A program made the position numbers and the translations under genes. This document shows positions 293 through 51,136 of a stretch of DNA of 64,000 nt, piece after piece. Below the pieces are notes generated by a model. That model was given only the letters and a program-made list of their open reading frames with translations, was not told the DNA's origin and made no database searches. The stretch is from Deltaproteobacteria bacterium (lineage in GTDB: Bacteria; Myxococcota_A; Polyangia; Polyangiales; JADJMO01), in contig JALHOE010000001.1 in assembly GCA_022843175.1 (NCBI GenBank), positions 70,988 to 134,987 on the forward strand, written 5' to 3'. How positions within the stretch are numbered: position 1 is the stretch's first letter; every line of letters starts with the position of its first letter.

Positions 293-2368
293 ATGGTTCC
301 CACTGTAAGGTTCCGCGTAACGATCGCGATCCTCGCGCTGAGCGGTGGACTCATGCGCACCGCAGCCGCCCACGAGCAGCCCCCGAGCGGCCCGACACCA
401 CCGCAGAAGCCCGCGGAGATCGTCGTGTCCGGCGACAAGGGCTACACCGCTGCCTCCGCCGACGAGGTTCGACACCGCGATCTGTCTCTTCGTCCCCGCG
501 TTCGTCCGGGCGACATCCTCTCGGTAGTGCCGGGATTGTTCGCCGTGCAGCACGCCGGGGGCGGCAAAGCGAACCAGTATTTCCTCCGCGGCTTCGACGC
601 GGACCACGGCACCGACATCGCGCTCTTCGTCGACGGCGTTCCGATCAACCTTCCGTCGCACGGTCACGGTCAGGGTTGGCTCGACATCCATTTCCTGATC
701 CCGGAGCTCGTCACGACGCTCTCGTCGAGCAAGGGGCCGTACCTGGCCCGGTACGGAGACTTTGCGACGGCCGGGGCCATCGACATCCGGCTGAGCGATC
801 ACATCCACGAGTCGAGCGTGCTCGTTCAGGGAGGAAGCTTCGGGTCCGCCCGTACGGTGTTCATGACTGCGCCGGAGCTCGGCGACGATTGGTCGACGAT
901 CGTCGCAGGCGAAGCGTCGACGTCGAACGGGCCGTTCCGCAATCCGGAACGTTTCCGCAAGCTCAACGTCTTCGGACGAGCGACGCGCCACCTCGGGCCC
1001 GGCGCGCTGTCGCTCACATGGATGTCGTACAGCGGCGGGTGGAACGCGTCGGGTCAGGTGCCGCTCCGCGCGATCGGCAAGGTGCCGGAGCTCCCCGACG
1101 AGTTCGGTACGATGGACCCGACGGAGGGAGGCAGCACGCAGCGGCATCAGTTGAGTGCGTCGTACGCGTATCGCCGCGGCGATGACGACACTCGCGCGGT
1201 CATCTACGCGACCCGTTACAACTTCGCGCTGTTCTCGAACTTCACGTTCTTCGCGCGCGACCCGGAGAACGGCGATCAGATCGCGCAGACCGATGGACGA
1301 ACCGTCGCCGGCGCCCATTGGTTCTACCGCCGCACGCGAGCCCTCGGCGGGTTGAAGCTCGCGAGCACCGTCGGCTTCCAAGCGCGCCACGACGCGATCC
1401 AGAACACACTCCACGAGACGCGAGCGCGCAAGAGCCTCGGCACCTCTGTCGACGCCGGCGTGTCGCAAACATCGATCGGCCTCTATGCCGAGGAGGACGC
1501 GACACTCCTTCCCTGGCTTCGCGTCATCGCGGGCCTCCGTGTGGATCGCTTCGATGTGTCGGTGCGCGACCGTCTCGAGCGCACGGATGGCGCGCAGACT
1601 TCCGGAATCGAGGGCGCCACGCTCGCCTCGCCGAAGCTCAGCGTGGTGCTGTCGCCCGCGCCGTTCATCAACATGTTTCTCAACTACGGCCGCGGCTTCC
1701 ACAGCAACGACGCGCGTGGTGCCGTGCGCCGTCTCGATCCGTCGTCGCCAGCGGTGACGCTCCTCGCTGTCGCAGACGGCTACGAAGCCGGCACGCGTCT
1801 CCGCCTGCTCGATCGTCTGGACATCGCCGCTGCCGTCTTCCGGCTCGACCTCCAGAGCGAGACCGTGTGGGTCGGCGACGAGGGAACGACCGAGGCCCGC
1901 GGTCCCACGCGGCGCATCGGTGCGGAGCTCGAGGCACGCGTGAAGCTCGCCAACTGGATCTTCGCCGACGCGGACGCGACGTTCACGAAGGCGACCTTCG
2001 TACAGAACGCGGGGAACGCCAACGCTGTCGCACTGGCACCGACGCGAACGTTCTCTGGCGGGATCGGCTTCAAGCATCCGCGCGGAACGTTCGGCAGCTT
2101 GCGTGTGCGATCGATCGCTGCGAGGCCGGCGACGGAGGATCGCGCGCTCGTCGCCGATGGCTGGACGGTGTTCGACGCCTCGCTCGGCCATCGTTTCGGT
2201 TGGCTCGAAGTCGCTGCGGACGTTCGGAACGTGCTGAACACGCGGTGGCGAGAGGTGCAGTTCGCGAACGAGTCGCGGCTCCGAACCGAGAGCGCCCCGG
2301 TCCGCGACATTCACTTCACGCCGGGCTGGCCGTTCACCGCTCTGGTGCGAGCCACAGCGTACTGGTGA
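293..2368 (+). CDS. TonB-dependent outer-membrane receptor
   Basis: 691-aa ORF. Signal peptide (AILALSGGLMRTAAAHE). Plug-type motifs (ILSVVPGLFAVQHAGGGKANQYFLRGFDADHGTD). Long beta-barrel region ending in aromatic ...ATAYW. Family call by motif recall only. Confidence 0.85.
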   Translation: MVPTVRFRVTIAILALSGGLMRTAAAHEQPPSGPTPPQKPAEIVVSGDKGYTAASADEVRHRDLSLRPRVRPGDILSVVPGLFAVQHAGGGKANQYFLRGFDADHGTDIALFVDGVPINLPSHGHGQGWLDIHFLIPELVTTLSSSKGPYLARYGDFATAGAIDIRLSDHIHESSVLVQGGSFGSARTVFMTAPELGDDWSTIVAGEASTSNGPFRNPERFRKLNVFGRATRHLGPGALSLTWMSYSGGWNASGQVPLRAIGKVPELPDEFGTMDPTEGGSTQRHQLSASYAYRRGDDDTRAVIYATRYNFALFSNFTFFARDPENGDQIAQTDGRTVAGAHWFYRRTRALGGLKLASTVGFQARHDAIQNTLHETRARKSLGTSVDAGVSQTSIGLYAEEDATLLPWLRVIAGLRVDRFDVSVRDRLERTDGAQTSGIEGATLASPKLSVVLSPAPFINMFLNYGRGFHSNDARGAVRRLDPSSPAVTLLAVADGYEAGTRLRLLDRLDIAAAVFRLDLQSETVWVGDEGTTEARGPTRRIGAELEARVKLANWIFADADATFTKATFVQNAGNANAVALAPTRTFSGGIGFKHPRGTFGSLRVRSIAARPATEDRALVADGWTVFDASLGHRFGWLEVAADVRNVLNTRWREVQFANESRLRTESAPVRDIHFTPGWPFTALVRATAYW

Positions 2369-2381: not shown

Positions 2382-2589
2382 ATAGGTCTCCTGGCAGTCG
2401 CTCTGCCGGCCACTCGCACGCGGATCGTTCCGGGGTGCAGCGCACGCATTCGCTGCGATATCCGAACTGTGGTCGGCGCGGTCACGGTGCAACGTTGAGG
2501 TCAGCGCGCGGGCACTCGCCTTGCAGAAGCACGCGACGCCGCGGCACGAGGTCGCGGCGCTGTTAGACTCGTGACCTGGAGGTGCGCAC

Positions 2590-2667
2590 ATGAAGATTCG
2601 TATCCGCATTCGTCAGACCAACTGCAAGTTCTGCGGCGGAGCCTGCGGGTTCTTCTGCAACTGCTGA
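2590..2667 (+). CDS. unannotated 25-aa Cys-rich micropeptide (MKIRIRIRQTNCKFCGGACGFFCNC)
   Basis: ATG preceded by GGAGG 7 nt upstream. Five Cys in the last 14 residues. GC-rich third positions in the Cys-rich half. Below the 60-aa cutoff of the ORF track. Confidence 0.5.
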   Translation: MKIRIRIRQTNCKFCGGACGFFCNC

Positions 2668-2682
2668 TCGGAAGCCATCCCC

Positions 2683-2835
2683 GTGAAAGCTCTCCGTACG
2701 ACGAAGATCAAGAACGTGAAGGTTCGTCCTGCAGCCAAGACGCGCCTGCGTCACTGCGGCGATCCTCCGACGATGCGTCACTGCGGTGATCCGCCGATGC
2801 TTCGGCATTGCGGCGATCCGCCCGCTCGTCGCTGA
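2683..2835 (+). CDS. unannotated 50-aa peptide with three HCGDPP repeats (MKALRTTKIKNVKVRPAAKTRLRHCGDPPTMRHCGDPPMLRHCGDPPARR)
   Basis: GTG start fixed by an in-frame TGA five codons upstream and by alignment to the paralog at 47903-48052 (shared MK.LR....NVKV leader and HCGDPP repeats). Followed by a strong hairpin terminator. Confidence 0.6.
   Translation: MKALRTTKIKNVKVRPAAKTRLRHCGDPPTMRHCGDPPMLRHCGDPPARR
2749..2823 (+). repeat. 27-nt tandem repeat (about 2.8 copies) encoding R-H-C-G-D-P-P-x-x
   Basis: cgtcactgcggcgatcctccgacgatg / cgtcactgcggtgatccgccgatgctt / cggcattgcggcgatccgccc read directly. Confidence 0.8.
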
Positions 2836-2849
2836 CAAGCGGCCCTTGC

Positions 2850-2885
2850 ACGATGCCCCCGCACCGAAAGGAACGGGGGCATCGT
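2850..2885. terminator. bidirectional hairpin terminator between convergent genes
   Basis: perfect 11-bp stem acgatgccccc / gggggcatcgt with a 14-nt loop, followed by cttcttc; lies between the peptide gene (+) and the 2891-4759 gene (-). Confidence 0.6.
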
Positions 2886-2890
2886 CTTCT

Positions 2891-4759
2891 TCAGCGTCGT
2901 CGTCGCAGTGCGAGCGCGGTCACGACGGCCAACCACCCGAGCGATGGACCGAACTTCGTCGCTCCGGCGCCCATGCTGCAACCGCCACCATCGCTGCCGA
3001 CGTCGCCGTTCGGTCCCTGTGTCGCGCCGGGACTCCCGCCGCCGGAACCAGCGTCGCCGCCGGGCCCGGCCTCGGTGAACGTGCCGCCGTCCTTCTCGAC
3101 GGGATCCGGTTCTTCCTCCATCCCTGCGTCGAACAGACCACCATCCGGGGGTGCGGAGGGAGGCGGCGGCACCGTGGGGCCCGACCATCGTGTGAGCGCG
3201 TTGCGGATCATCGTCTCGTAGCGCGCGTCCTGGCTTCCCGCGAATCCGCCGCCCTTCGCGGCCCAGTCATCGAGCGCCCACGCCGTGAAGATCGCGCCCA
3301 TCGAAACGACCTCTGCGCCGGCCGGTGTACGGTAGAAGGCCGCCGAACCCTTGATCTTGCCGTCGGAGACTTGCTTGATCGCGCCAAGGACGCGCTGGCC
3401 AGGTGGCCGGAACTTGTCGAACTCGGGGCTGCTCGCGAGCGTAGAGTCGACTTCGTAACCGAAGACGTTGGCGATCTTGTCTCCGGCCTTCAGCCCAGTG
3501 CCGTCGTACAACCAGAACGTCGGATCGGTGACGATGAGATCCGCCCACGGGTAGAGACCGCCGTGCATCGGGTTGCCCGATGCATCGCGGATGATTCCTG
3601 CAGACTGCACGCCGGTGAGAAGCATGCCCGGACGACGCTCGTCGATCCCTGCTGCGGGATCGTACTCGAGGTTCTTCCACCCGCGCGTCACGAGGCGGTA
3701 CTTCGCCTTCGCCTCCTCGATCTTGCCAGCCGCTTTCAGCGAGTACGCTTCTTTCTGCATCGGGTCGCGCACCCAGCTCTCCTTGTACCCAACGATCGTG
3801 CTGCGCGGTCCGCCGGGACCCGCCTCGAAGCGCACCTGCCACGACCACGTGTCGCCCGAGAGGAAGAGGAAGTTCGCGCCGGCGTCGCGCGCACCCAGCG
3901 CGTTGTCATACATCGGCCGGCTTGTGTACTCCTCGTGTCCCGAGAACGTGATCACCTTGCGCCCCTTCGCGATCTCCGGATCGCGATCGAGGTCTTCATC
4001 GGTGCAATACGCGACCTCGTAGCCGTTCTTCTCGAGCCAGCGGATGAACGGGTACTCGTAGCCGCCGACGTCGGCGATACCGCCCCCAACGAGGAAGGGA
4101 CGATCGAGCGAGACCTTCACGGCCTGCGTCAACGTTCCGATCGATTCGCTCGGGTGCGCAGGGCTCGAGTTGAATCCGTAAAGGCTCTTGCCGCCGCGCT
4201 CCGGTCCCGGCCACGCGTTGTACACGGCGTGCGTCGCCAGTCCGACGACCAGGAGGATCGGCTGCTTCGCGGGCATCCCGTCGTCGCGCACGGTGAAGAA
4301 CGTGAGAGCCTGCTTGCCGCTCGCAGCCTCGACGCGCGCCACGTACAGGCCCGTGGTCCACGTCGAATCGGTCGGGACCGAGACCGAGTCCGGCCAACGC
4401 GCTTCCGCGATTCCGAACTTCTCGTCGGCCGCAGGGTAGCTCCGAGGCGACGCCGGTTGCGCGGTGATGACCTTCATCTCGCGCGCGCCGGTCCCGCCGT
4501 ACCACCCGAGTCGGAAGATCCGAACGTCGTATCCCGTCGTCGAATGGACCTTCAGCTTGACCGTATCGCCGCGTGCGATCGACCACTGCGCGGGGTAGAC
4601 GTCGACGACGCCGCCAAAGCGGGCCGTCCCATCGTTCACCACCGTCCAGCTTCCAGCGATGCCGCTCTTGCCGTTCTCTTCCGACACGACTCCGGCGTGC
4701 GCCACCGCGGATGAAGCGAGGGACGCGAGCACGAAGACCGAACCAACGACACGACGCAT
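2891..4759 (-). CDS. secreted N,N-dimethylformamidase beta-subunit-like (DUF6605-like) protein with a MYXO-CTERM sorting tag
   Basis: 622-aa ORF. Signal peptide (VFVLASLASSAVAHA). GAGGAGG Shine-Dalgarno before the ATG. Body resembles DMF-ase-like family by recall (RLGWYGG..., GLATHAVYNAW). C-terminus GGGCSMGAGATKFGPSLGWLAVVTALALRRRR is a Gly/Cys motif, a hydrophobic helix and an Arg cluster. Confidence 0.65.
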   Translation of the reverse strand: MRRVVGSVFVLASLASSAVAHAGVVSEENGKSGIAGSWTVVNDGTARFGGVVDVYPAQWSIARGDTVKLKVHSTTGYDVRIFRLGWYGGTGAREMKVITAQPASPRSYPAADEKFGIAEARWPDSVSVPTDSTWTTGLYVARVEAASGKQALTFFTVRDDGMPAKQPILLVVGLATHAVYNAWPGPERGGKSLYGFNSSPAHPSESIGTLTQAVKVSLDRPFLVGGGIADVGGYEYPFIRWLEKNGYEVAYCTDEDLDRDPEIAKGRKVITFSGHEEYTSRPMYDNALGARDAGANFLFLSGDTWSWQVRFEAGPGGPRSTIVGYKESWVRDPMQKEAYSLKAAGKIEEAKAKYRLVTRGWKNLEYDPAAGIDERRPGMLLTGVQSAGIIRDASGNPMHGGLYPWADLIVTDPTFWLYDGTGLKAGDKIANVFGYEVDSTLASSPEFDKFRPPGQRVLGAIKQVSDGKIKGSAAFYRTPAGAEVVSMGAIFTAWALDDWAAKGGGFAGSQDARYETMIRNALTRWSGPTVPPPPSAPPDGGLFDAGMEEEPDPVEKDGGTFTEAGPGGDAGSGGGSPGATQGPNGDVGSDGGGCSMGAGATKFGPSLGWLAVVTALALRRRR

Positions 4760-8634: not shown

Positions 8635-10461
8635 ATGCGCCTCGGAACGGCGGCCACGGTCGCTTTGTTGATCTCGTGCATGGGTGTCGCGCACGCCGCG
8701 GACGCCGGCAAGCTCGCGGGCTCGCCGGTGCGCGTCGACATCACCGAGACCTCGCTCCTCAATTGGCACGGCGACAATCTCAACGCGACGCGCCGGATCG
8801 ACGACAACTACGCCGAGTGGATCAACCGCTTCAACGTCCTCGCTGTGTGGCGCGCATGGCAGCTCGGTCTGCGGCTCGACACCGCGAAGTACTGGGGCGA
8901 GCCAAACCTCGCTGAGTTCACACAGGAGAACGGCTACACCCGCCTCGAAACGAGGGACGCGGCGCGACAGCTTCCGTATCGATACCGCGACACCTTCCTC
9001 GTTCAGGGGAACTACGTGCCCGGACCGCGCGATCCATCGATCTATCCGTCGAAGTATTTCCTCTCCTACGTGAAACCGAGCTTCGAGCTCACGCTCGGCG
9101 ACGCGTACGCAGCCTTCGGGCGTGGGTTCGTGCTCAACGTTCGCAAGTTCGACGAGATCGGTGCGGACACCACCATCCAGGGCGCGAAGGTCATCGCGCG
9201 CGCGGTCGGCCCGTTCACGTTCACGGGCGTGCTTGGTCTCTCCAACCCCACGCGCGTCGACGACGCGACCGGCTTCAAGCTCGCCGACGCGCCCACGGAT
9301 CCGTGGACGCAGACATGGAGCCGCGACGCGATCCTCGGTCTTCGCGCCGAGGCACGGGCCAAACGCACGACCATCGGCGTTCACGCCGCAAACATCCGCC
9401 GCCGCGACGATCTCTTCACCGACGACCCGTCGTTCGTGCGCGACGTGACCGGCGTCGGCGCGAACGTTGCGATCCCGAAGGTCTCCGACGCGTTCCCGCT
9501 CAACGTGTACTCCGAGATCGCGCTGCAACGACGCGAGCCGTTCCCGGAGCGCAACGAGCCGACCACCGACGGATACGCGGCCTACACCGCGCTGAGCTAC
9601 ACGTCCGGCATCCTCACCACGTCGGTCGAGGGCAAACACTACCGGCACATGAACCCGGTGCGGCTCAACGCCGACAAGTCGCGGTACTTCGCCTTCCAGG
9701 CGGTCCAGTACACGGCCAACCCGACCGTCGAGTTGATCACGCAGGACTCGCTCTTCGACAACTCATGCACGACCGGTGGCCGCGTGCGCTTCGACGTGAA
9801 GCCGGTGAAGTCCTACGCGGTCTATGCGTCGGTGGGTCGCTTCGCCAACTGGCAGCAGGGCTGCGGCGCGGAGCCGACCCTCGGGATCTCTCCGGTCCTC
9901 GATGTGACCGAGCGGCGCGACATCACCGACCTCTACATCGGGTTCGATCTCCGCTCCGGGCGCGACGCGTCGTACATCACGGTGCTGATGGGCACACGCC
10001 GCGAGAACCGCGCCGACGGCAGCAGCTACTACCGCGAGGGTTGGATCCAGGCCAACGGCAGCAAGGTGCTCACGGGGCTCTGGTCGCTCGAGGTCGACGC
10101 GTGGCACCGCAACCGTTACCTCAACCTCGAGCAGTGGCGGGAGGGGCAGACCTACGTTGCGCTCAAGTACGCGTCGAAGTGGTCCGGGGTCATCGGGCAC
10201 GAGTACTCGACCCGGCCCTCGCAGATCACGCCGGTAGGCGTGGGCTCTGGCAGCGACGATCCGCTGCGCGTGCTGCGGTTCCTTCCTAACGACGGCGTGC
10301 AGCACTTCGTGAACGTCGGCGGGCAGATCAAGTTCAGCGATGCGGTGATGTTGCGCTTCCTGTTCGGCGAGCAGCGCGCCGCGCTCAAGTGCGTCAGCGG
10401 CGTCTGCCGCTTCTTCCCGGCGTTCGCCGGCGTGCGCAGCGAGCTCATCGTGCGGTACTGA
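8635..10461 (+). CDS. putative outer-membrane beta-barrel protein, family unknown
   Basis: 608-aa ORF; signal peptide (ALLISCMGVAHAADA); Tyr/Gly/Arg-rich alternating segments; C-terminal ...SELIVRY aromatic terminus. Confidence 0.5.
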   Translation: MRLGTAATVALLISCMGVAHAADAGKLAGSPVRVDITETSLLNWHGDNLNATRRIDDNYAEWINRFNVLAVWRAWQLGLRLDTAKYWGEPNLAEFTQENGYTRLETRDAARQLPYRYRDTFLVQGNYVPGPRDPSIYPSKYFLSYVKPSFELTLGDAYAAFGRGFVLNVRKFDEIGADTTIQGAKVIARAVGPFTFTGVLGLSNPTRVDDATGFKLADAPTDPWTQTWSRDAILGLRAEARAKRTTIGVHAANIRRRDDLFTDDPSFVRDVTGVGANVAIPKVSDAFPLNVYSEIALQRREPFPERNEPTTDGYAAYTALSYTSGILTTSVEGKHYRHMNPVRLNADKSRYFAFQAVQYTANPTVELITQDSLFDNSCTTGGRVRFDVKPVKSYAVYASVGRFANWQQGCGAEPTLGISPVLDVTERRDITDLYIGFDLRSGRDASYITVLMGTRRENRADGSSYYREGWIQANGSKVLTGLWSLEVDAWHRNRYLNLEQWREGQTYVALKYASKWSGVIGHEYSTRPSQITPVGVGSGSDDPLRVLRFLPNDGVQHFVNVGGQIKFSDAVMLRFLFGEQRAALKCVSGVCRFFPAFAGVRSELIVRY

Positions 10462-15943: not shown

Positions 15944-17758
15944 TCACTCCGGCGCGGCGGTGAGTACCTGCATGAACGTCGTCAACTCGACGATGTGGCC
16001 GTCGACGAACTTACCCACCCATGGCTCGGTCTCGCCCGCCGTCCGAGGATCGTCGGCTTTCAGGCCGGCTGTGCTGTAGACCTTGATGACCTCTTCCATC
16101 GTCGCGAGGGAGCCGCCGTGCCCGTACGGTCCAGTTGATGTCGTCCCGCGAAGCGGCGGCGTCTTGAATGCACCGACGGCCCACGAGCCCGACTTCAGGA
16201 CTGCGAGCGATGGCCGTGCGCTCGGAGCGTCGCTGAACAGGCCGTCGCTGCGGAACTCGCTCGCGAGCAACGTTGCGATCCCGGGTGCCCGTCCCTCGTC
16301 GGGCTTACCGTCGCTCCGGCCGGTGGGAAACCGCACGATGTGAAACGCATCATCGGTGAGACGCGGTCCGTAATGGCACTGCACGCAACCGGCCGAGAAG
16401 AAGGTGCGCAGTCCGGCCTTCTGGTCCGGTGTCAGCGCGAGTGACTCGCCGTCGATATAGCGATCGAGAGCGTTCGGCTTCGCGCGGAGCGTCCGTTCGA
16501 ACGCGGCGATTGCTTTGGCTACGTTGGCGAAGACCCGCGTCGCGGCAGTCTGATCGCTCGCCGTCATCGCGGCCCACCCGGGATCGCCTGGTTTCCCGTT
16601 CGCTGGGAAACGCGTCGTGTCCGCGAGCGCGGGCAGCGGTCCGAACACGGCCTCGTACGCTGCGCGATATCGATCGTAGATCGCGTGCGCGACGAACAGC
16701 CGGTTCGATCCGAACTCTGCCGGGTTCTCGAACGGTCCCGTAGCCTGCGCCCACAGCGTGTCGGCGCGACCGTCCCAGAACTGCCAGCGCGCGTGGCTCG
16801 CGAAGAGGACCGAGGGGGAGTTGCGGTCCCCGGTGCCGACGCCAGTTGAACGACCGCGTCCATCCGCGAACGACTTCGCGGGATCGTGACATGTTGCGCA
16901 TGACACCGTTCCCGACGGCGAGAGCGATGCATCGGAGAAGAGCTGCCGGCCGAGCGTCGCGGCGGCCGGATCATCGGCCTTGCTGTTCGTCGGGTCGGGT
17001 GGAGGAGCGCCCGGCAATTTCATCTCGCGAAGAAGGTCCCACCGCTTCGGCGACAGACCATCGATGCGCGTCGGCAGCTTCGGGGACTCGGGTTTGCGCC
17101 CATCGAGCCGCGCCAGCTCCGAGCGAAGCCGGTCCACAATCTCCTCGCGATCGGGATCGTCCATCGCGACGAGTATCTTCATCGTGCGCGTGTCGATGAG
17201 GACGAACGTCGGCAGGGAGGCGGGCGACAGCCGCGCCGGCGCGAGTCGAAAGCTCGGGTCGATCCCTACGCGCGGCTGCGCGTCGAGCTGCGCGCGGTAG
17301 GCGGGGATGTCGGCAACGGTCGCCGGAACGTTGTCGTCGTTCGCGACCAACAGGTCGAGCAGCAGGACCCGATCGCTCACGTCGGAGGTCAGAAGTTCCT
17401 TCGTCCGCTTCGCGTCCCAGCGGCACGTTCCGCACCATCCAGCCATCACGCGGATGACGAGGAGACGCGATCGTGCCGCGCACGGCTCGAAGTACTCGCG
17501 AAGCGCGAACGAGCGGGGCGTCCCATCGGCGTCCGTGCCGTCGAACGTCATGTCCGGGATCACCGCGCCCATGGCCACCTGGTAGTCGGCGCGCGGATAC
17601 TCGCCGTCCACACTCTTGCCATCTACGCACAGAGCTCGAGGAGCATCTGTCCCGACGTCAACGCCGGTTTCCGCCGCGCCCGCATCGTTTGGCGCGGACG
17701 AAGAGTTGCCGCACGCGGCGGCGAGGATGCACGCGATGAGAGAAGCGAGAGCTCGCAC
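15944..17758 (-). CDS. fusion lipoprotein: N-terminal thioredoxin-fold domain (WCGTC) plus C-terminal di-heme cytochrome c peroxidase/MauG-family domain
   Basis: VMAGWCGTCRWDAKRT in the N-terminal third. Two CxxCH heme motifs (SCATCHDP, GCVQCHYGP) with CCP-like spacing. Start placed at GTG 17758 (MRALASLIACILAAAC lipobox). The track start at 17830 would cover the dyad. Confidence 0.8.
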   Translation of the reverse strand: MRALASLIACILAAACGNSSSAPNDAGAAETGVDVGTDAPRALCVDGKSVDGEYPRADYQVAMGAVIPDMTFDGTDADGTPRSFALREYFEPCAARSRLLVIRVMAGWCGTCRWDAKRTKELLTSDVSDRVLLLDLLVANDDNVPATVADIPAYRAQLDAQPRVGIDPSFRLAPARLSPASLPTFVLIDTRTMKILVAMDDPDREEIVDRLRSELARLDGRKPESPKLPTRIDGLSPKRWDLLREMKLPGAPPPDPTNSKADDPAAATLGRQLFSDASLSPSGTVSCATCHDPAKSFADGRGRSTGVGTGDRNSPSVLFASHARWQFWDGRADTLWAQATGPFENPAEFGSNRLFVAHAIYDRYRAAYEAVFGPLPALADTTRFPANGKPGDPGWAAMTASDQTAATRVFANVAKAIAAFERTLRAKPNALDRYIDGESLALTPDQKAGLRTFFSAGCVQCHYGPRLTDDAFHIVRFPTGRSDGKPDEGRAPGIATLLASEFRSDGLFSDAPSARPSLAVLKSGSWAVGAFKTPPLRGTTSTGPYGHGGSLATMEEVIKVYSTAGLKADDPRTAGETEPWVGKFVDGHIVELTTFMQVLTAAPE

Positions 17759-40789: not shown

Positions 40790-41739
40790 TTCGCGGCGGC
40801 GCTCGTCGCGGAGAACGAACTGCTTCGGCTGCAGCTCGCGGTCGCGAAGCGGCGGCTCGAGGGGAAGCGGGTGCGCGCGTTCCCAACGCAGCGGTGGACC
40901 GTTGGGGTCCTGTCGCGGTTCACGTCGACGTGGCGGTCCGCGGTGACGTTGTTCGAGCCGGCGACCGTGCTGCGATGGCATCGCGAAGGGTTCAGGGTGT
41001 TCTGGCGATGGCGTTCGAGGAGGTCGGCGACCGAGGTCGCATGCGGCGACGATGCGCGACATGACCGCGAAGAACCCGAGGTGGGGCGCGGAGCGGATCC
41101 GCGGCGAGCTGCTCAAGCTTGGCATCCGTGTCTCGAAGCGCACGATCCAGCGGTACATGCAGGTGGCGCGCAAGCCGGGTGACGGACAGCGTTGGCGAAC
41201 GTTCATCAAGAACCATGCGACGTGGGCCTGCGATTTCATGCAGACGTTCGATGCGCTGTTCAGGCCGATCTTCATCCTGTTCTGCATCGACCTGAAGCGA
41301 CGCCGGATCGTGCACGCAGCGGTCACGTACCACCTAACGGACGACTGGTGCGCGCAGCAGGCGCGCAACGTGATGATGGACGGGCAGCCCGAGGTGTTGA
41401 TCGTCGATCGCCACAGCAAGCTCGGCGGGAAGTCCGCGACCATGTTCAAGGCCGTCGGCGTGCGCGTCGTGCGCACTGTGATCCGCGCACCCCTCATGAA
41501 TGCGTTCGCGGAGCGGTTCGTCGGCACGCTCCGACGCGAGCTGCTCGATCACGTCCTGATCCTCGGCGATGAACATCTCGCGCGGCTCGTTCGCGAGTAC
41601 GTCCCGTTCTACAACGAGGGGCGACCGCATCAGGCGCTCGATCAACAGCAGCCTGTGCCGCGAGCGCCGGAGACGACCGGCGGGATCGTTTCCCTGCCGT
41701 CCTCGGGGGTCTTCATACGACTACCGCCGAGTGGCATGA
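40790..41739 (+). mobile_element. frameshifted IS transposase (rve/integrase-core type), decayed
   Basis: N-terminus ENELLRLQLAVAKRR...VLRWHREGFRVFWRWRS in one frame. Core MTAKNPRWGAERIRGELLKLG...DRHSKLGG...FYNEGRPHQALD in a second frame. Tail VLGGLH / YDYRRVA* in two further frames. This gives at least three frameshifts. Confidence 0.75.
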
Positions 41740-42236
41740 CGCGCCCCTACGACGCGCGCGGCGAAAGTAGCCATCACACGTGCGCCGGCGACGGCGTTCG
41801 TCCAGAATTGGAGGAGCCTCGGTTCCTGTCGCACTGGCGGCCATCATCATCGCGTGCGGCGCCAGCGGCGATCACACCGCGACGACGCCGCGACCTACGA
41901 CAAGGAAATCGCGTTCCGCGATCTCGAGGTCGTCGGGTTCCTTGATCGGAACGCGGACGAGAATTGTCGCCGGAGGAATACGGGCCGTTCCGCGTGAGTG
42001 ATGTCGTCGCTGGGTCCCCCGACTATCCACTTGTGCACGTCGCGTTTCGGGTGTTGCGAGTGGTGCTGGGGGGAAGCGAAGGAGCAGATTCGCTGGTTAC
42101 GCGGCTACGGCGGTCGGCTGCGCGTGCTTCGGGTGTACGTCGATGACCTGCGCGGCCAGCGCGCGGACCGCGCGGACGTCGTCGGCCAGGATCGTCCATG
42201 TGTACGCCCGAACCTTCACCTGGATCGCGCCTCGGC

Positions 42237-46411: not shown

Positions 46412-46453
46412 TCAACCGACGCGATCGAGATAGCGTCCGATGTTGTCGGCCGC
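46412..46453. repeat. 42-nt direct repeat, copy B (authentic 3' end of the GMC gene)
   Basis: tcaaccgacgcgatcgagatagcgtccgatgttgtcggccgc. Confidence 0.85.
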
Positions 46454-47773
46454 GCGCAGCGCGTGGGCGAGCACCGTCAGCGTGGGGTGTCGATCTCCGG
46501 CGGTCGGCATCACCGACGCGTCGGCGATCCAGACGTTCTCGAGCGCGCGCAGTCGTCCGAAGGGATCGCACACCGAACTCTCATCAAGTCCCATCGCACA
46601 GGTGCCCGCCTCGTGCCCCGCGCCCGGCTGCAGCGGATCGAGGAAGGGGATGAGCTTGCTGCCGGGAATGGCGATCGCGTCGGCGAGCGCTACGCACGCA
46701 CGGCGCATGTCCGCCGCCATCCGTCGTTCAGCGGCGGACCACGCGAGGTGGATCCGCGGGACTCGGCGGCCGAGCGCGTCACGCTCGTTCGGATCGAGAT
46801 CGACGTACCGCTTCGCGTGCGGAAACATCTCGCCTATCGCGTGGATCTGCGTGGCCGACCATCGGTCCTCCTCGCCACCCGGCACCATCCGTTCGACACC
46901 GAGCGGCGCGAGTGGCAACGGTCCGGTGACTTCGATCGAAACGCCGCCGGGATATGACTCCCGGTCGCCGGGGCCCGTGTTGACCAGACCGTGCGCGAGG
47001 ACCGATCCCGGGAACGGTCCTCGCGCGGCCGTCGCCGAGGGCACGGGGGACGGTTCGAGCAGCAACCAGCTCGCGACCATGTGATCGACGAGCCCATGAC
47101 CGATGCGTCGCGCGCCGACGTCGCTGCTCAGCAGAATGCGTGCCGTCTCGACGGGCGAGGCGGCAAGCACGAAGGCACGCGCGCGAAGCTCTTCGCGGGT
47201 CTCGCGCATGAGGTTCAGCACGGAGAGCGCTTGGGCACGCTTGGCGGTGTGCTCGAGGTGGAGTGCAGCGCGGTAGCAGCGCGCCTTTCGCGCGACCTCG
47301 TGGGCGAGCGGGGTCCACAGGCGGCGACTGCCCGTGCCCGCACGAAGCGCGCCGCGCTTCGCCGCGAACCGGATCGCGAGTGTGCGCGCCACCCGACGAT
47401 AGCGTTCGTCGATCTGTCCCTCGACGACACCCAGCGTGCGTTCGACCGCTGCGTAGTGCGGGGCGAGGGCCGACGCGCCGTAGGGCCACTTCCCGCGGCG
47501 GAAGACCACGTCGGGAAACCGGTACGACCATCCGCCCCAGAGAAGCGCTCGACCGCCCACGGCGCGGACGCGATACCAATCGAACGAGCTGCCCACGGCG
47601 CGATACGCCCAAGCGCGTCGATCGACTTCCGGGGTCCGCTCGCCGTCGCGCAGCCGTGGCCCCGCATCCAACAAGAGAACGCGATAGCCCCGCGAGATAA
47701 GTCGGTCGGCAGCGATCGTCCCCGCGGGACCGGCGCCGACAACGACGACGTCCCACGCGGTCACTGGAGGCAC
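46412..47773 (-). CDS. GMC-family FAD-dependent oxidoreductase
   Basis: VVVVGAGPAGTIAA Rossmann motif; C-terminal GAGHEAGTCAMG...NVWIADASVMPT.G..HPTLT. Confidence 0.8.
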   Translation of the reverse strand: MPPVTAWDVVVVGAGPAGTIAADRLISRGYRVLLLDAGPRLRDGERTPEVDRRAWAYRAVGSSFDWYRVRAVGGRALLWGGWSYRFPDVVFRRGKWPYGASALAPHYAAVERTLGVVEGQIDERYRRVARTLAIRFAAKRGALRAGTGSRRLWTPLAHEVARKARCYRAALHLEHTAKRAQALSVLNLMRETREELRARAFVLAASPVETARILLSSDVGARRIGHGLVDHMVASWLLLEPSPVPSATAARGPFPGSVLAHGLVNTGPGDRESYPGGVSIEVTGPLPLAPLGVERMVPGGEEDRWSATQIHAIGEMFPHAKRYVDLDPNERDALGRRVPRIHLAWSAAERRMAADMRRACVALADAIAIPGSKLIPFLDPLQPGAGHEAGTCAMGLDESSVCDPFGRLRALENVWIADASVMPTAGDRHPTLTVLAHALRAADNIGRYLDRVG

Positions 47774-47902
47774 CTTGGTCTCGAGGAGTGCATGACTTTG
47801 CTCACGACGGGTCGTCGTTCACGAGGAGTGGGCATCGCGTTTGCTCTCGTTCGCGCGACGGCAGTTCGTAGTGAACCGCCGCATCCGAGAAACGAGGCAC
47901 GC

Positions 47903-48052
47903 ATGAAGAATCTTCGTCCCATCGAATTGCAGAACGTCAAGGTCACCCGACGTTCCGCGAAGGTGCGGGATAGCCATTGCGGCGATCCCCCGGCGGCCCG
48001 CCATTGCGGCGATCCGCCTTCTCATAGCGGCGCAGCGACCGAACGTCGCTAG
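47903..48052 (+). CDS. unannotated 49-aa HCGDPP-repeat peptide (MKNLRPIELQNVKVTRRSAKVRDSHCGDPPAARHCGDPPSHSGAATERR)
   Basis: ATG with GAGG upstream; paralog of 2683-2835; two intact repeats plus one degenerate (HSGAAT); followed by a hairpin and a T-rich run. Confidence 0.6.
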   Translation: MKNLRPIELQNVKVTRRSAKVRDSHCGDPPAARHCGDPPSHSGAATERR

Positions 48053-48060
48053 CCGGACGC

Positions 48061-48100
48061 CGAGTCCCTCGCCGGTCCGAGTCTCGACCAGCGCGGGACT
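48061..48100 (+). terminator. hairpin terminator after the peptide gene
   Basis: gagtccc...gggactc outer stem with further inner pairing (ggtc/gacc), followed by atttgttct. Confidence 0.5.
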
Positions 48101-48113
48101 CATTTGTTCTGCG

Positions 48114-48130
48114 TGTGACCGGCGAGGTCA
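48114..48130. promoter_or_regulatory. GTGAC-N7-GTCAC dyad (copy 13)
   Basis: perfect gtgaccggcgaggtcac; the only copy with no obvious gene start within about 200 bp. Confidence 0.5.
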
Positions 48131-48244
48131 CGTGCGCCAATTCACGGAGAGCGCGCGGCGGCGCGTCAATATCGTGGCAGTCGACCTGATCAACTTGGGC
48201 AGTCCGCATCCAACCGATGCGAGGCGAGTTTGTGTCTGCAACGG

Positions 48245-48661: not shown

Positions 48662-49417
48662 TCAGAAGGGTCGATACTGCACTGCGACTGCAGCTCGAAA
48701 CGCAGGCGAGTCGGCGCCGATCCCCACGCCGCCACCCACCGCCGCTACGAGCAGCGGCGTCAGCTGCATCCGGAACCCGAGCTCGGCGAGGTTCTGGACC
48801 TTGCCGGTCTGCATTCGCTGCTCGTGAGCGAAGTCGGCGATCCCCATGATCCAACTCGACACGCGAAACGAATACGCGCCGATCAGTCGGTAGCGTCCGC
48901 TTCGCTCCATCTCGTCGCGCCGCACGTTGAATTGCCAGACGCCGTTGAAGTGAAGCGCATGGAGGAACGTGGTCCCCGGCAAGTGCTTCGTGACGTTGAG
49001 CCGCACGGCGGGGTCGAAGCCCTTGCGGCGCGACTCGGCACCCGTTGGTGCTTCGATCATGCCGCCGAGCGCGAACGCCGGCACGGTCAAAGTCTCCTGA
49101 TTGAAGTTGTAGAGCGCGTCCGCTGCGACGCGACCGATGTCCACGTGCTTCCCGGTCTCGAGCACGACGGGCACCCGCACCGCGACCTGCCCGTTCCGGA
49201 TGACGCCCCATTCGAAGCGCGGATCGAGCGTCACCTTGGACGTGCGCTCCCTGCTGTATTCGTAGCGCGTGAGCGCCTGCACCTCGCGGCTGTAGTGACC
49301 GACGACGTACGCGTCGGCTGCTTCGACCGGGAGCCCCTCTTCGAGGTTTGTGTGATCGGCCGCGAGCGCCGTCGTCGGGATCAGCGTGACCGCGAGAAAG
49401 AGAGCGCCGCGCATCAT
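48662..49417 (-). CDS. outer-membrane beta-barrel protein (MetA/phenol-degradation-like transporter family)
   Basis: MMRGALFLAVTLIPTTALA signal; alternating beta-strand pattern; C-terminal ...AVAVQYRPF; its ATG overlaps the upstream stop. Confidence 0.6.
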   Translation of the reverse strand: MMRGALFLAVTLIPTTALAADHTNLEEGLPVEAADAYVVGHYSREVQALTRYEYSRERTSKVTLDPRFEWGVIRNGQVAVRVPVVLETGKHVDIGRVAADALYNFNQETLTVPAFALGGMIEAPTGAESRRKGFDPAVRLNVTKHLPGTTFLHALHFNGVWQFNVRRDEMERSGRYRLIGAYSFRVSSWIMGIADFAHEQRMQTGKVQNLAELGFRMQLTPLLVAAVGGGVGIGADSPAFRAAVAVQYRPF

Positions 49418-50724
49418 TTCGCGGCCCCGTCGGTCATCGGGAACGGCTCGACGTTCGGCATGCCCTGCGCCTTGTCGAGCCACTCCTTCGTCGCCATGGC
49501 AGCGTGTTTCGGCGTCGCGCCAGGCTTCATGCCCTCCTTGTCCATCTTCATGTTGGGCACGAGCTTCATCACCGCGTCGTGCAGCGAGCCGGGGAGCTCA
49601 CCGGGTTGCGTCGCCGGCGAGAGCTTCATCTTGAGTTGCTCGCGCACCTCGGGAGGCACCTCCTTGCTCCCGTCGGGGCTCATCATCGGCCACATGCCCT
49701 CGAACATCTCCTCCATCATCTTGTTCATCGGGCCCTCGTAGCCACGCATCCACGGCTCGTAGCGGCGCGGATCGACGTCGGGGTGCTCGATCGCGAACTT
49801 TCGCGCGAGCTCGCGGTCACCGGGCTGCGCGCTCATCGCCTCGACGACGCGATAGAGCTCGGCGCGCTTCTCGTCGATCGTCCAACCGTCGTACGCGAGG
49901 ATCGCGTAGGCGATCCCGTGCAGCATGTGCAGGTTGTCGAAGATGTTCGCGGACTCCGGCGACATGCGCGAGTAGCGCGGCATGATCTCGCGGGAGAGCA
50001 GCATTCGTTGTGGTCGGTTCGCCAGCACCTCCGTCGAGGTCGCGTGCGTCGCATCGACGATCGCGTCCTGCTCGGACCCGTTGCCGCCGAGCATCTGCGC
50101 TTCGTAGATCGCGGGGTGCCACCAGTGCGCGTAGTAGAAGAACGTCGCCGAGCGAGGATGGTTGTTCCGATAGACGCCGAAGTACGGCTTCATCATCACC
50201 ATCGCGCGGCGCATCGTGAGCTCGAGGGGCGCCGGACTTCGCGCAGCCCTCGGCAAGTTCTCGAGGTAGTAGTCCACCGCGTCGCGGGTCACCTCCGCCT
50301 TCTTGCTCCAGGGGATGTCACGATCCGACAGGATGTCGTAGGTCTGCTCGTGGTGGATGTGCGTCCAGTCGATCGCCTGGTACAGCCGCCACGCAGCCTG
50401 ACCGACGTGCGGCCCGTACGTCATCATCGTCGGCTCCATGCGCGGTGGATCACGGAACCACGCGAGGCACTCCGCCTCGAAGTCCCGATCGATCTCGGCG
50501 GCATGCGCGAGCGTCCCGAGCTGTAGAACGTCGTGCTGCTTTCCGTGCGCGAAGTGGATCGCCCCGCTCGTCCGGAACTGGGTGTTGTGACGCCAGAAGA
50601 ACGCGTTGTTGTAGCTGCGGCGGCGCGAGGCGACCGCGTCGCGCTGCTCCAGATGGAGCGAGCACGCGCTTGTCGCCGTGGTCGCGAGCAGGGCGAAGCA
50701 CAGCGTGGCTCGGGCGAATCTCAT
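49414..50724 (-). CDS. lipoprotein of unknown function with a Met-rich C-terminal region
   Basis: MRFARATLCFALLATTATSAC lipobox; His/Trp-rich core (YYAHWWHPAIYE); C-terminus MNKMMEEMFEGMWPMMSPDG...NMKMDKEGMKPG. Confidence 0.6.
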   Translation of the reverse strand: MRFARATLCFALLATTATSACSLHLEQRDAVASRRRSYNNAFFWRHNTQFRTSGAIHFAHGKQHDVLQLGTLAHAAEIDRDFEAECLAWFRDPPRMEPTMMTYGPHVGQAAWRLYQAIDWTHIHHEQTYDILSDRDIPWSKKAEVTRDAVDYYLENLPRAARSPAPLELTMRRAMVMMKPYFGVYRNNHPRSATFFYYAHWWHPAIYEAQMLGGNGSEQDAIVDATHATSTEVLANRPQRMLLSREIMPRYSRMSPESANIFDNLHMLHGIAYAILAYDGWTIDEKRAELYRVVEAMSAQPGDRELARKFAIEHPDVDPRRYEPWMRGYEGPMNKMMEEMFEGMWPMMSPDGSKEVPPEVREQLKMKLSPATQPGELPGSLHDAVMKLVPNMKMDKEGMKPGATPKHAAMATKEWLDKAQGMPNVEPFPMTDGAAK

Positions 50725-50725
50725 G

Positions 50726-51136
50726 TCACGCCTGCGCCGGCAACGACGACATGAGTCGCGTGCACGCCGCCTCGCAGCGCCGGCAGGCCTCCGCGCAGAT
50801 TCGGCAGTGCTCGTGCTGCTTGCCGTGCTTCTCGCACTCCTCGGCGCAGAGGCGGCACGCGAGCTCCATCGCCTGAACCTGCGCGCGGAGCAGCGCCCAC
50901 GACGGCTCGGTCTGCCGCGCGAGCATCCGCGCTGCGGCCTGACACGCATCGGCGCAATCGAGGTTCGTGCGGATGCAGCGCCGCAGCATGTCGATCTGCT
51001 GCTCGCCGAGGCAGGCGTCCGCGCAGCTGTTGCAGGCGTCGAGGCAGGCGAGACACTCCTCGATGCAGTCCGAGAGGACCTTCGGATCGATCGTGGTATT
51101 GCGCGGGTGGGTCTTGAGCATGTCGAGGTGGTTCAT
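50726..51136 (-). CDS. four-helix-bundle Cys-rich copper-binding protein (DUF326/Csp3-like), copy 2
   Basis: 136 aa; roughly 85-90% identical by eye to copy 1; its stop lies 1 nt before the next ATG. Confidence 0.85.
   Translation of the reverse strand: MNHLDMLKTHPRNTTIDPKVLSDCIEECLACLDACNSCADACLGEQQIDMLRRCIRTNLDCADACQAAARMLARQTEPSWALLRAQVQAMELACRLCAEECEKHGKQHEHCRICAEACRRCEAACTRLMSSLPAQA

Follow-up and report, generated by a model that had tools for sequence, protein, structure and literature searches.

The subject of this study is a short gene within a 64,000-nucleotide stretch of DNA from a Deltaproteobacteria bacterium assembly (contig JALHOE010000001.1), referred to below as the window. 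The gene encodes a small peptide built around His-Cys-Gly (HCG) units and is divergent from a gene for a GMC-family oxidoreductase, with an intergenic region of 129 nt between them. The GC content of the window is 66.7%. A preliminary description of this DNA had reported the peptide and a paralog, a hairpin and a GTGAC-N7-GTCAC dyad on the 3' side of the gene, and the divergent GMC gene; all are present in the sequence, and the translation is exactly as given there. The two peptide genes and the features around the gene of interest are as follows:

46412 to 47773, minus strand: compact, cytoplasmic GMC-family flavin adenine dinucleotide (FAD) oxidoreductase of 453 amino acids (Pfam GMC_oxred_C, 68.8 bits), the candidate modifying enzyme
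47831 to 47845, plus strand: sigma54-type -24/-12 promoter-like element GGCATCGCGTTTGCT, 57 nt before the ATG, agreeing at 9 of 10 specified positions (counterpart in the related locus L047, GGCATCGCGCTTGCT)
47894 to 47897, plus strand: Shine-Dalgarno sequence GAGG, read from the sequence, with a 5-nt spacer to the ATG
47903 to 48052, plus strand: RHCG-repeat peptide gene 2, 49 amino acids, with two HCG units and one decayed unit (HSG); translation MKNLRPIELQNVKVTRRSAKVRDSHCGDPPAARHCGDPPSHSGAATERR
48062 to 48111, plus strand: terminator-like hairpin 3' of the stop codon, followed by AUUUGUUCUG, a U-rich tail
48115 to 48131, no strand assigned: dyad GTGACCGGCGAGGTCAC, one of 13 exact copies in the window
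2683 to 2835, plus strand: RHCG-repeat peptide gene 1, the paralog, with a GTG start, 50 amino acids and three units; translation VKALRTTKIKNVKVRPAAKTRLRHCGDPPTMRHCGDPPMLRHCGDPPARR

The segment containing the hairpin (48053-48135) has a minimum free energy (MFE) of -42.7 kcal/mol (z = -3.47).

The repeat had initially been described as HCGDPP, and repeats are indeed real in both genes. The degenerate HCGDPP motif CAYTGYGGNGAYCCNCC has five copies in the 64 kb, all five exact and all five within the two peptide open reading frames (ORFs), and variation among these five 18-nt cores is confined to third codon positions. The conserved unit proved to be shorter, namely (R)HCG, with a DPP tail that varies in the wider family. 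The third unit of the gene at 47903-48052 reads CAT AGC GGC (His-Ser-Gly), one base from CAT TGC GGC, and represents a lineage-specific loss; in the closest relative of this gene, the sequence stops after two units.

We searched exhaustively with HMMER for further members of the family, using a profile of both paralogs, and a second search with an enlarged alignment added more relatives. The exhaustive search returned about a dozen unannotated relatives of 33 to 55 amino acids from Polyangia/Myxococcota metagenomes, among them MKKLGSIQLKNVKVRRRSAKVRGSHCGDAPAVRHCGDSTLLA, MNRLLSIKPKNVKIRRTAKVRGRHCGDSTAVRHCGDSTVRHCGDSTVAR, MKNLFQTKPKNLKVERPKTVRARHCGNPPTMRHCGNVRHCGNPPAV, MKILRSKNLKNVTVGTRRRVSKRHCGQITRHCGAPPRHCGAPPTR, and MLFDETKPKNLRVDALVDARKQRDLRHCGNPPRHCGNPPRARHCGHLTHCGHLPR. 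All of these relatives are unnamed or labeled hypothetical. The family hidden Markov model (HMM) matches the gene at 47903-48052 with E = 1.5e-22 and the paralog with E = 1.6e-26. Members share the N-terminus MKxLxxxxxKN[VL]K[VL]; next come a linker of basic character and then two to four (R)HCG units, with spacers that differ in length between them. M1, L4, N11, and the HCG units are conserved in the family alignment, the number of units and the spacers vary, and the DPP tail shows no conservation. Within the HCG units, the Gly after Cys is invariant and the residue before Cys is His. The peptides carry a net charge of +5 to +12 and two to four Cys each, with no membrane segment. A short ORF in which the N-terminal region is conserved and the C-terminal core varies is a trait of precursors to peptides that are synthesized ribosomally and modified post-translationally (RiPPs); the family displays it. 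The peptides have no match in Pfam or NCBIfam at E ≤ 1, and a word-indexed protein search with a single peptide gave no match. DNA pattern scans for two CGDPP units returned 35 loci in species genomes and 5 in metagenomes, each either a simple repeat or out of frame; given the lack of conservation in the DPP tail, this pattern was too strict.

Two observations on the edges of the family are recorded here. In L043, a 66-amino-acid ORF (17397-17603, plus strand) between methyltransferase and multicopper oxidase genes ends in SPTMRHCGNPSAA; it has one RHCG unit and an unrelated N-terminus and may be a decayed duplicate of a peptide gene. In addition, a 432-amino-acid protein of unrelated sequence (P0023) is listed in a 90%-identity cluster of 46-amino-acid peptides (P0005), which is most likely a database clustering artefact.

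A codon-aware comparison, proposed in the preliminary description as a check on its claim that the two paralogs are real, selected coding sequences, bore that claim out. The ratio of nonsynonymous to synonymous substitution rates (dN/dS) is 0.31 between the paralogs, with dS near 1. Comparisons with relatives in other genomes gave 0.10 for paralog 1 and its counterpart L041a and 0.27 for the gene at 47903-48052 and its L047 orthologue; the pair L043 and L058 gave 0.17. Differences between ortholog pairs cluster at codon position 3. As a control, we calculated pooled ratios of nonsynonymous to synonymous differences (pN/pS) in all six frames of the same alignments of peptide genes. The peptide frame had the lowest ratio of the six (0.35). 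The frame of a 94-amino-acid antisense ORF (47819-48103, minus strand) had a ratio of 1.01, the frame with common third positions 0.54, and the other three frames 1.2 to 2.1. The peptide ORF is therefore a real gene under purifying selection on this frame only. The antisense ORF was considered as a selected product and set aside at its pN/pS of about 1; that the antisense frame is open in nearly all loci carries no weight because this is expected at 67% GC. A 37-amino-acid N-terminal extension from an upstream ATG at about 47790, suggested earlier, is excluded because stop codons close the upstream frame in L047 and in the paralog, where only 10 and 5 upstream codons, respectively, are open.

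The protein encoded by the divergent gene is a bona fide GMC flavoprotein. It has the FAD motif VVVVGAGPAG at residues 9-18 (GxGxxG), the C-terminal GMC domain, and no signal peptide, and the His/His pair of the superfamily, H387 (GAGHEAGT) and H429 (GDRHPTLT), is invariant in 41 orthologues. Its AlphaFold model (pLDDT 91.7) has the two-domain fold of the superfamily; in Foldseek, it matched the fructose dehydrogenase large subunit, FAD-glucose dehydrogenase alpha, and bacterial pyranose/C-glycoside oxidases, with TM scores of 0.7 to 0.8 at about 20% identity. An exact look-up of the protein returned no record, and its best matches are named Polyangiaceae or Polyangia. The orthologue family comprises at least 173 clusters; every one derives from a Polyangia, Myxococcota, or "Deltaproteobacteria" assembly, and together they far outnumber the called peptides.

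A GMC orthologue adjoins the peptide gene in all seven contexts in which both flanks are available, and the GMC proteins beside peptide genes are orthologues of 56-89% identity. The arrangements are as follows:

Window, L047, and L055: GMC and peptide genes divergent
L050 and L058: GMC gene divergent from an MFS gene followed by the peptide gene
L043: GMC gene divergent from histidine kinase, sigma54 regulator, MFS, and peptide genes
L041: MFS, Cys-rich mini-ORF, peptide 1, convergent GMC, divergent peptide 2, then CusCBA

L041 is a compact cluster, and the window splits the matching parts between 2590-2835 and 46412-48052. No GMC gene was seen in L046 or L052, where both contigs end just past the peptide gene. 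An orthologous MFS gene lies directly upstream of the peptide gene in L041, L043, L050, and L058, and genes for a histidine kinase and a sigma54-dependent response regulator are adjacent in L043, L046, and L055. The preliminary description had treated the GMC gene as a landmark and could not identify a shared modifying enzyme. The GMC flavoprotein now emerges as the conserved neighbor, and the idea of enzymatic modification itself gains support.

Linkage was also examined from the side of the enzyme, using three more distant orthologues (L060, L062, and L063). L060 encodes a 51% GMC orthologue with an uncalled 33-amino-acid ORF, MKLLQKVRLKNIKVMTALNKSLKVRHCQIRCCK (9821-9922, plus strand), directly upstream on the same strand. 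This peptide has the family N-terminus and a single RHC core (family HMM, E = 1.7e-8). Its gene is preceded by a sigma54-type element matching at 10 of 10 positions, and an S8 peptidase gene, the sole peptidase gene seen near the family, lies upstream. In L062 and L063, a LanB dehydratase gene ends in a 4-nt overlap with the start codon of a 45-46% GMC orthologue, indicating translational coupling. These clusters, which are of the class I lanthipeptide type (L062, 6066-11353; L063, 3568-11332; also L064), comprise arrays of precursors together with LanC, a luciferase-like oxidoreductase, and a C39-ABC exporter; the precursors of L063 are three in number, related, and equipped with KKENLQHLKVRTDLKGG leaders. 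LanB and LanC were found only with these 45-46% orthologues and not at the loci of the RHCG peptides. The precursor cores read from the LanB-coupled clusters contain His-Cys in three of four cases (THHCA, CHCE, and CHCS). The enzyme lineage is thus consistently found with Cys-containing ribosomal peptides, and a LanB-coupled GMC tailoring enzyme appears to be undescribed so far. Kinship of the family N-terminus with the Cys-rich mini-ORF, or with the KKENLxxLKV leaders of the LanB-coupled precursors, was considered and found no support in a leader-only HMM.

We then examined the regulatory sequences of the peptide genes. Six peptide genes or operons have, 47-75 nt upstream, an element that matches the sigma54 pattern GGCAC-N5-TTGCW at 9 or 10 of its 10 specified positions: both window genes (elements at 2511-2525 and 47831-47845), L041 peptide 2, L046, L047, and L060. 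The background rate of such elements is 0.011 per 200 nt. Judged by pattern and position, these elements probably work as promoters, and a sigma-70 promoter scan found no match at either peptide locus of the window. The dyad GTGACCG-N3-CGGTCAC (17 nt; GTGAC-N7-GTCAC) has 13 exact copies in the window, starting at 90, 2365, 4868, 4966, 5966, 8041, 10475, 15911, 17807, 19994, 42237, 45039, and 48115, and 18 copies at up to one mismatch, compared with 3.65 expected. It is about 50-fold enriched relative to unrelated high-GC loci and also occurs in L041, L043, L046, L047, and L055. In L041, L046, and L047, the same dyad lies 63-90 nt 3' of the stop codon of the orthologous peptide genes. Its copies are nearly all intergenic and adjoin copper-handling genes, and none lies between 20010 and 42237. 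The dyad may serve as an operator or enhancer site for a regulator particular to this clade or, alternatively, be a hairpin resembling repetitive extragenic palindromes.

Copper-handling genes (multicopper oxidases, Cus/Czc pumps, Csp [DUF326], and YHS or cupredoxin proteins) are present in every context of at least 9 kb. The window itself is a composite metal-resistance region, with two multicopper oxidases, three redoxins, DUF305, Csp/DUF326, a CDF transporter, and MerR/MerC. It also encodes two RND/MFP/OEP systems and an ars-like block (low-molecular-weight phosphatase, GAPDH, MFS, and FMN reductase), as well as DUF6029, a di-haem peroxidase, VKOR-SPW, two GH15 proteins, a MYXO-CTERM protein, and an rve-family transposase (41052-41945). 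The MYXO-CTERM protein places the window in the Myxococcota. No radical SAM, MNIO, YcaO, or lanthionine synthetase genes were found in the 64 kb. With the neighborhood dominated by copper genes, the initial view of the peptides as a new Cys/His-repeat family, probably modified and metal related, is supported.

The locus of peptide gene 1 includes these additional features:

293 to 2368, plus strand: TonB-dependent receptor upstream of the locus (match to the NCBIfam TonB-siderophore subfamily, below cutoff)
2365 to 2381, no strand assigned: dyad GTGACCGAGCCGGTCAC, about 130 nt upstream of the sigma54-like element
2511 to 2525, plus strand: sigma54-type promoter-like element GGCACTCGCCTTGCA, matching at 10 of 10 positions, 64 nt before the ATG of the mini-ORF
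2590 to 2667, plus strand: Cys-rich mini-ORF MKIRIRIRQTNCKFCGGACGFFCNC (25 amino acids) with a strong GGAGG Shine-Dalgarno sequence, 15 nt upstream of peptide gene 1
2850 to 2893, plus strand: terminator hairpin 3' of peptide gene 1 (12-bp GC-rich stem; MFE, -32.3 kcal/mol; z = -3.65), followed by UCUUCUUC

A homologue of the mini-ORF, MKIRIRIRETQCKFCGGACGESGCGCRR, occupies the equivalent position in L041 (about 9948-10034) and in L042. Bearing x-Cys-Gly motifs, the mini-ORF product may be a second substrate. The closeness of both peptide genes to outer-membrane protein genes, pointed out earlier, did not hold as a family feature. No counterpart of the TonB receptor was found in any related locus, so it is a possible uptake partner specific to this window, and the barrel gene downstream of the second locus occurs only here and in the syntenic L047.

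That barrel gene (48662-49483, minus strand) encodes a weakly Phenol_MetA_deg-like protein and is accompanied by a gene (49414-50949, minus strand) for a 511-amino-acid protein without a family match that has a Met-rich C-terminal stretch, MNKMMEEMFEGMWPMMSPDG. The two are kept beside the GMC-peptide pair in L047 (76-87% identity), with the GMC-peptide pair inverted relative to them. This uncharacterized pair looks copper related.

What the enzyme could do to the peptide is suggested by ThaO and TheO. These GMC-family enzymes of Thermoanaerobaculia, which act on the RiPP precursors ThaA and TheA, make thiazole at the Cys of Gly-Cys-Gly in lanthipeptide-type precursors, with a mass change of -20 Da and without a YcaO protein (PMC13083261, Nature 2026). 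The proposed route involves FAD-dependent oxidation of Cys to a thioaldehyde, thioenolization, closure of the ring at the preceding carbonyl, and elimination of water (PMC13083261). According to a later chemistry paper, GMC oxidases can turn thiols into thioaldehydes (PMC13638132). By analogy, the FAD enzyme of the window would oxidize the Cys thiol of each H-C-G unit to a thioaldehyde, which would cyclize onto the preceding (His) carbonyl and lose water to give a thiazole, or would be trapped otherwise. The outcome would be a peptide with several imidazole-thiazole chelating units. This product would bind copper and then be exported, by the MFS protein in the relatives, and copper stress would switch on expression through the two-component system and sigma54.

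We consider the chances roughly even that the peptide is a substrate of the neighboring compact GMC flavoprotein. The specific thiazole chemistry and the copper-binding role of the product are each held with less assurance than that. The most far-reaching proposal must be regarded as doubtful at present, if possible: that a second, independently evolved GMC lineage acts on ribosomal peptides in Myxococcota; that it converts RHCG precursors into a new class of sigma54-switched copper-stress metallophores with His-thiazole (or other oxidized His-Cys) units, without YcaO, MNIO, or lanthionine synthetase; and that the same lineage tailors class I lanthipeptides. Several observations weigh against modification of the peptide by this enzyme or against the role in copper stress. 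Orthologues of the MFS, kinase, and sigma54 regulator are missing from the 64-kb window, and no leader peptidase or recognizable peptide-recognition-domain protein was found in any RHCG locus. Peptide gene 1 sits 45 kb from the GMC gene, and the evidence tying the peptide to copper is confined to its neighborhood. The window enzyme is not an orthologue of ThaO/TheO, in a comparison that covers the first ~400 residues of TheO: BLASTP against TheO residues 1-399 gave 30% identity over the N-terminal 140 residues (E = 1e-9), and the CVYCDACAGYGC Cys-rich insertion is absent. Replacing the Gly on either side of the TheA Cys, by G(-1)A or by G(+1)A, impaired the reaction (PMC13083261), and RHCG peptides have His, not Gly, at position -1. 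Finally, the linkage of enzyme and peptide could, as far as gene order goes, mean co-regulation alone.

The last of these points leads to the main competing explanation, which we regard as unlikely but worth serious consideration and in which the peptide is an unmodified, small cytoplasmic copper- or zinc-binding peptide (a mini-metallothionein or chaperone) with His, Cys, and sometimes Asp as ligands, and the GMC enzyme is merely co-regulated in the copper regulon. A His and a Cys are available in every unit, the variable spacing points to flexible binding units that act independently, and both the copper-gene neighborhood and the lack of a maturation protease or recognition protein at every locus agree with such a role. 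However, two to four Cys are few for a metallothionein, and simple metal binding leaves the conserved 14-residue N-terminal segment and the invariant Gly after Cys unexplained. Nor would it account for the close adjacency to one enzyme that survives several rearrangements, for the MFS exporter gene directly upstream in the same operon in four loci, or for the company that the enzyme family keeps with lanthipeptide precursors.

The peptide might instead be a small regulatory protein that senses copper via its His-Cys units, either by modulating the adjacent kinase and sigma54 regulator through feedback or by acting on the GMC enzyme as its partner or inhibitor. Kinase modulation by small proteins has precedents, MgrB being an example; the peptide gene is the last gene of the operon of kinase, regulator, and, in L043, MFS in both L046 and L043, and it is sigma54 dependent by promoter type. 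We nevertheless judge this improbable: only 3 of about 10 contexts have the kinase and regulator next to the peptide gene, and the 64-kb window lacks both, whereas the GMC gene is always present; the peptide lacks a membrane segment; and a variable number of repeats would be unusual for a specific protein-protein regulator. Least credible of all, with Rfam not searched, is that selection acts on another product, be it the 94-amino-acid antisense ORF, a protein extended at its N-terminus, a repeat or RNA element that is non-coding, or a leader peptide that stalls ribosomes at prolines and so regulates a gene downstream. In nearly all loci the antisense frame stays open over the length of the gene, the in-frame ORF reaches far upstream in the window, and DPP motifs are known ribosome-stalling sequences. 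Yet pN/pS is about 1.0 in the antisense frame and 0.35 in the peptide frame, and the extension is closed by stop codons in L047 and the paralog. A stalling leader was rejected since the PP of the tail is not conserved in the family and no same-strand gene follows either terminator.

GMC flavoenzymes acting on ribosomal peptides were first shown in 2026, in a single Acidobacteriota lineage. The present results suggest another lineage, separate from it and much larger (at least 173 clusters in Polyangia/Myxococcota), with its own unannotated precursor family and with distant members that accompany LanB. A literature search found no paper on the RHCG peptide family, on its pairing with a GMC enzyme, or on any GMC enzyme in the copper responses of myxobacteria. 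Should the pairing prove catalytic, it would widen the known enzymology of ATP-independent Cys heterocyclization, provide a compact enzyme with a very short repeated recognition unit (H-C-G), and add a new type of copper-stress peptide beside methanobactins and bufferins. The results also illustrate that genes for 40-50 amino acids in metal-resistance regions are systematically missed, most relatives being uncalled or hypothetical.

Several characterized systems resemble the RHCG loci in part. In mycofactocin biosynthesis, MftG is likewise a GMC enzyme tied genetically to a product derived from a ribosomal peptide. The window enzyme matches the MftG NCBIfam models weakly (E = 7e-17, far below cutoff), and mftA, mftB, and mftC are not present. 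MftG re-oxidizes the finished cofactor and does not modify the precursor, whereas the candidate role here is precursor modification. Flavin-dependent oxidation of a peptidyl Cys thiol to a thioaldehyde is the first step catalyzed by LanD/EpiD in aminovinyl-cysteine formation. LanD proteins have the HFCD fold, and their action is limited to a Cys at the C-terminus, which they decarboxylate; in contrast, the Cys residues of RHCG peptides are internal and the enzyme has the GMC fold.

The peptides do not belong to the methanobactins, bufferins, or metallothioneins, from each of which they differ in defining features. Bacterial metallothioneins typically have nine or more Cys and match a model; RHCG peptides have two to four and no Pfam or NCBIfam match at E ≤ 1. 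Bufferins are MNIO-modified ribosomal metallophores that protect against copper stress (PMC11626156). As with bufferins, a ribosomal peptide with modified Cys is proposed to buffer copper, the genes lie in copper-stress loci, and the systems are widespread in environmental bacteria. Bufferin precursors (DUF2282 or BUF_6/12Cys) carry signal peptides and are modified by an MNIO with a partner protein (DUF2063), whereas RHCG peptides lack a signal peptide, have a strongly basic character, and are paired with a GMC flavoprotein and an MFS transporter. The RHCG peptides match no Pfam or NCBIfam model and show no visible hydrophobic N-terminus, and no MNIO was found. The methanobactin system (MbnA, MbnBC, and MbnT) also starts from a short ribosomal precursor, and X-Cys units would in both cases become copper ligands composed of a nitrogen heterocycle and sulfur. 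A TonB-dependent receptor gene beside one window copy and an exporter gene in the clusters of relatives add to the resemblance. Unlike in methanobactin clusters, however, the candidate enzyme is a flavoprotein, the neighborhood points to copper detoxification rather than acquisition, and the TonB receptor is not conserved in the family. Pfam scans of the 67 window ORFs detected no MNIO (DUF692) or MbnC in the 64 kb.

The closest parallel is with ThaO/TheO, from which the RHCG system differs in several respects. The window enzyme is about 100 residues shorter than TheO. The RHCG precursor N-terminus is short and unrelated to that of ThaA/TheA, and it is followed by two to four repeated units. 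Neither the RHCG loci nor the window contain the lanthionine synthetase, C39 exporter, lanthipeptide-type leader, or small TheB-like subunit of the ThaO/TheO clusters, and the RHCG loci belong to a different phylum and to a copper-stress setting with sigma54 control. The invariant His before Cys suggests either that substrate tolerance differs or that the reaction has another outcome, for example an imidazole-thiazole chelator or a link between His and Cys. TheO is active without lanthionine synthetase (PMC13083261). In both systems, a GMC FAD enzyme is encoded with a short Cys-containing precursor and without a YcaO or other ATP-dependent cyclodehydratase, and the nearest solved relatives of both enzymes are FAD-glucose dehydrogenase alpha and the fructose dehydrogenase large subunit. 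The Gly after Cys, which is required in the ThaO/TheO substrates, is likewise invariant in the RHCG peptides.

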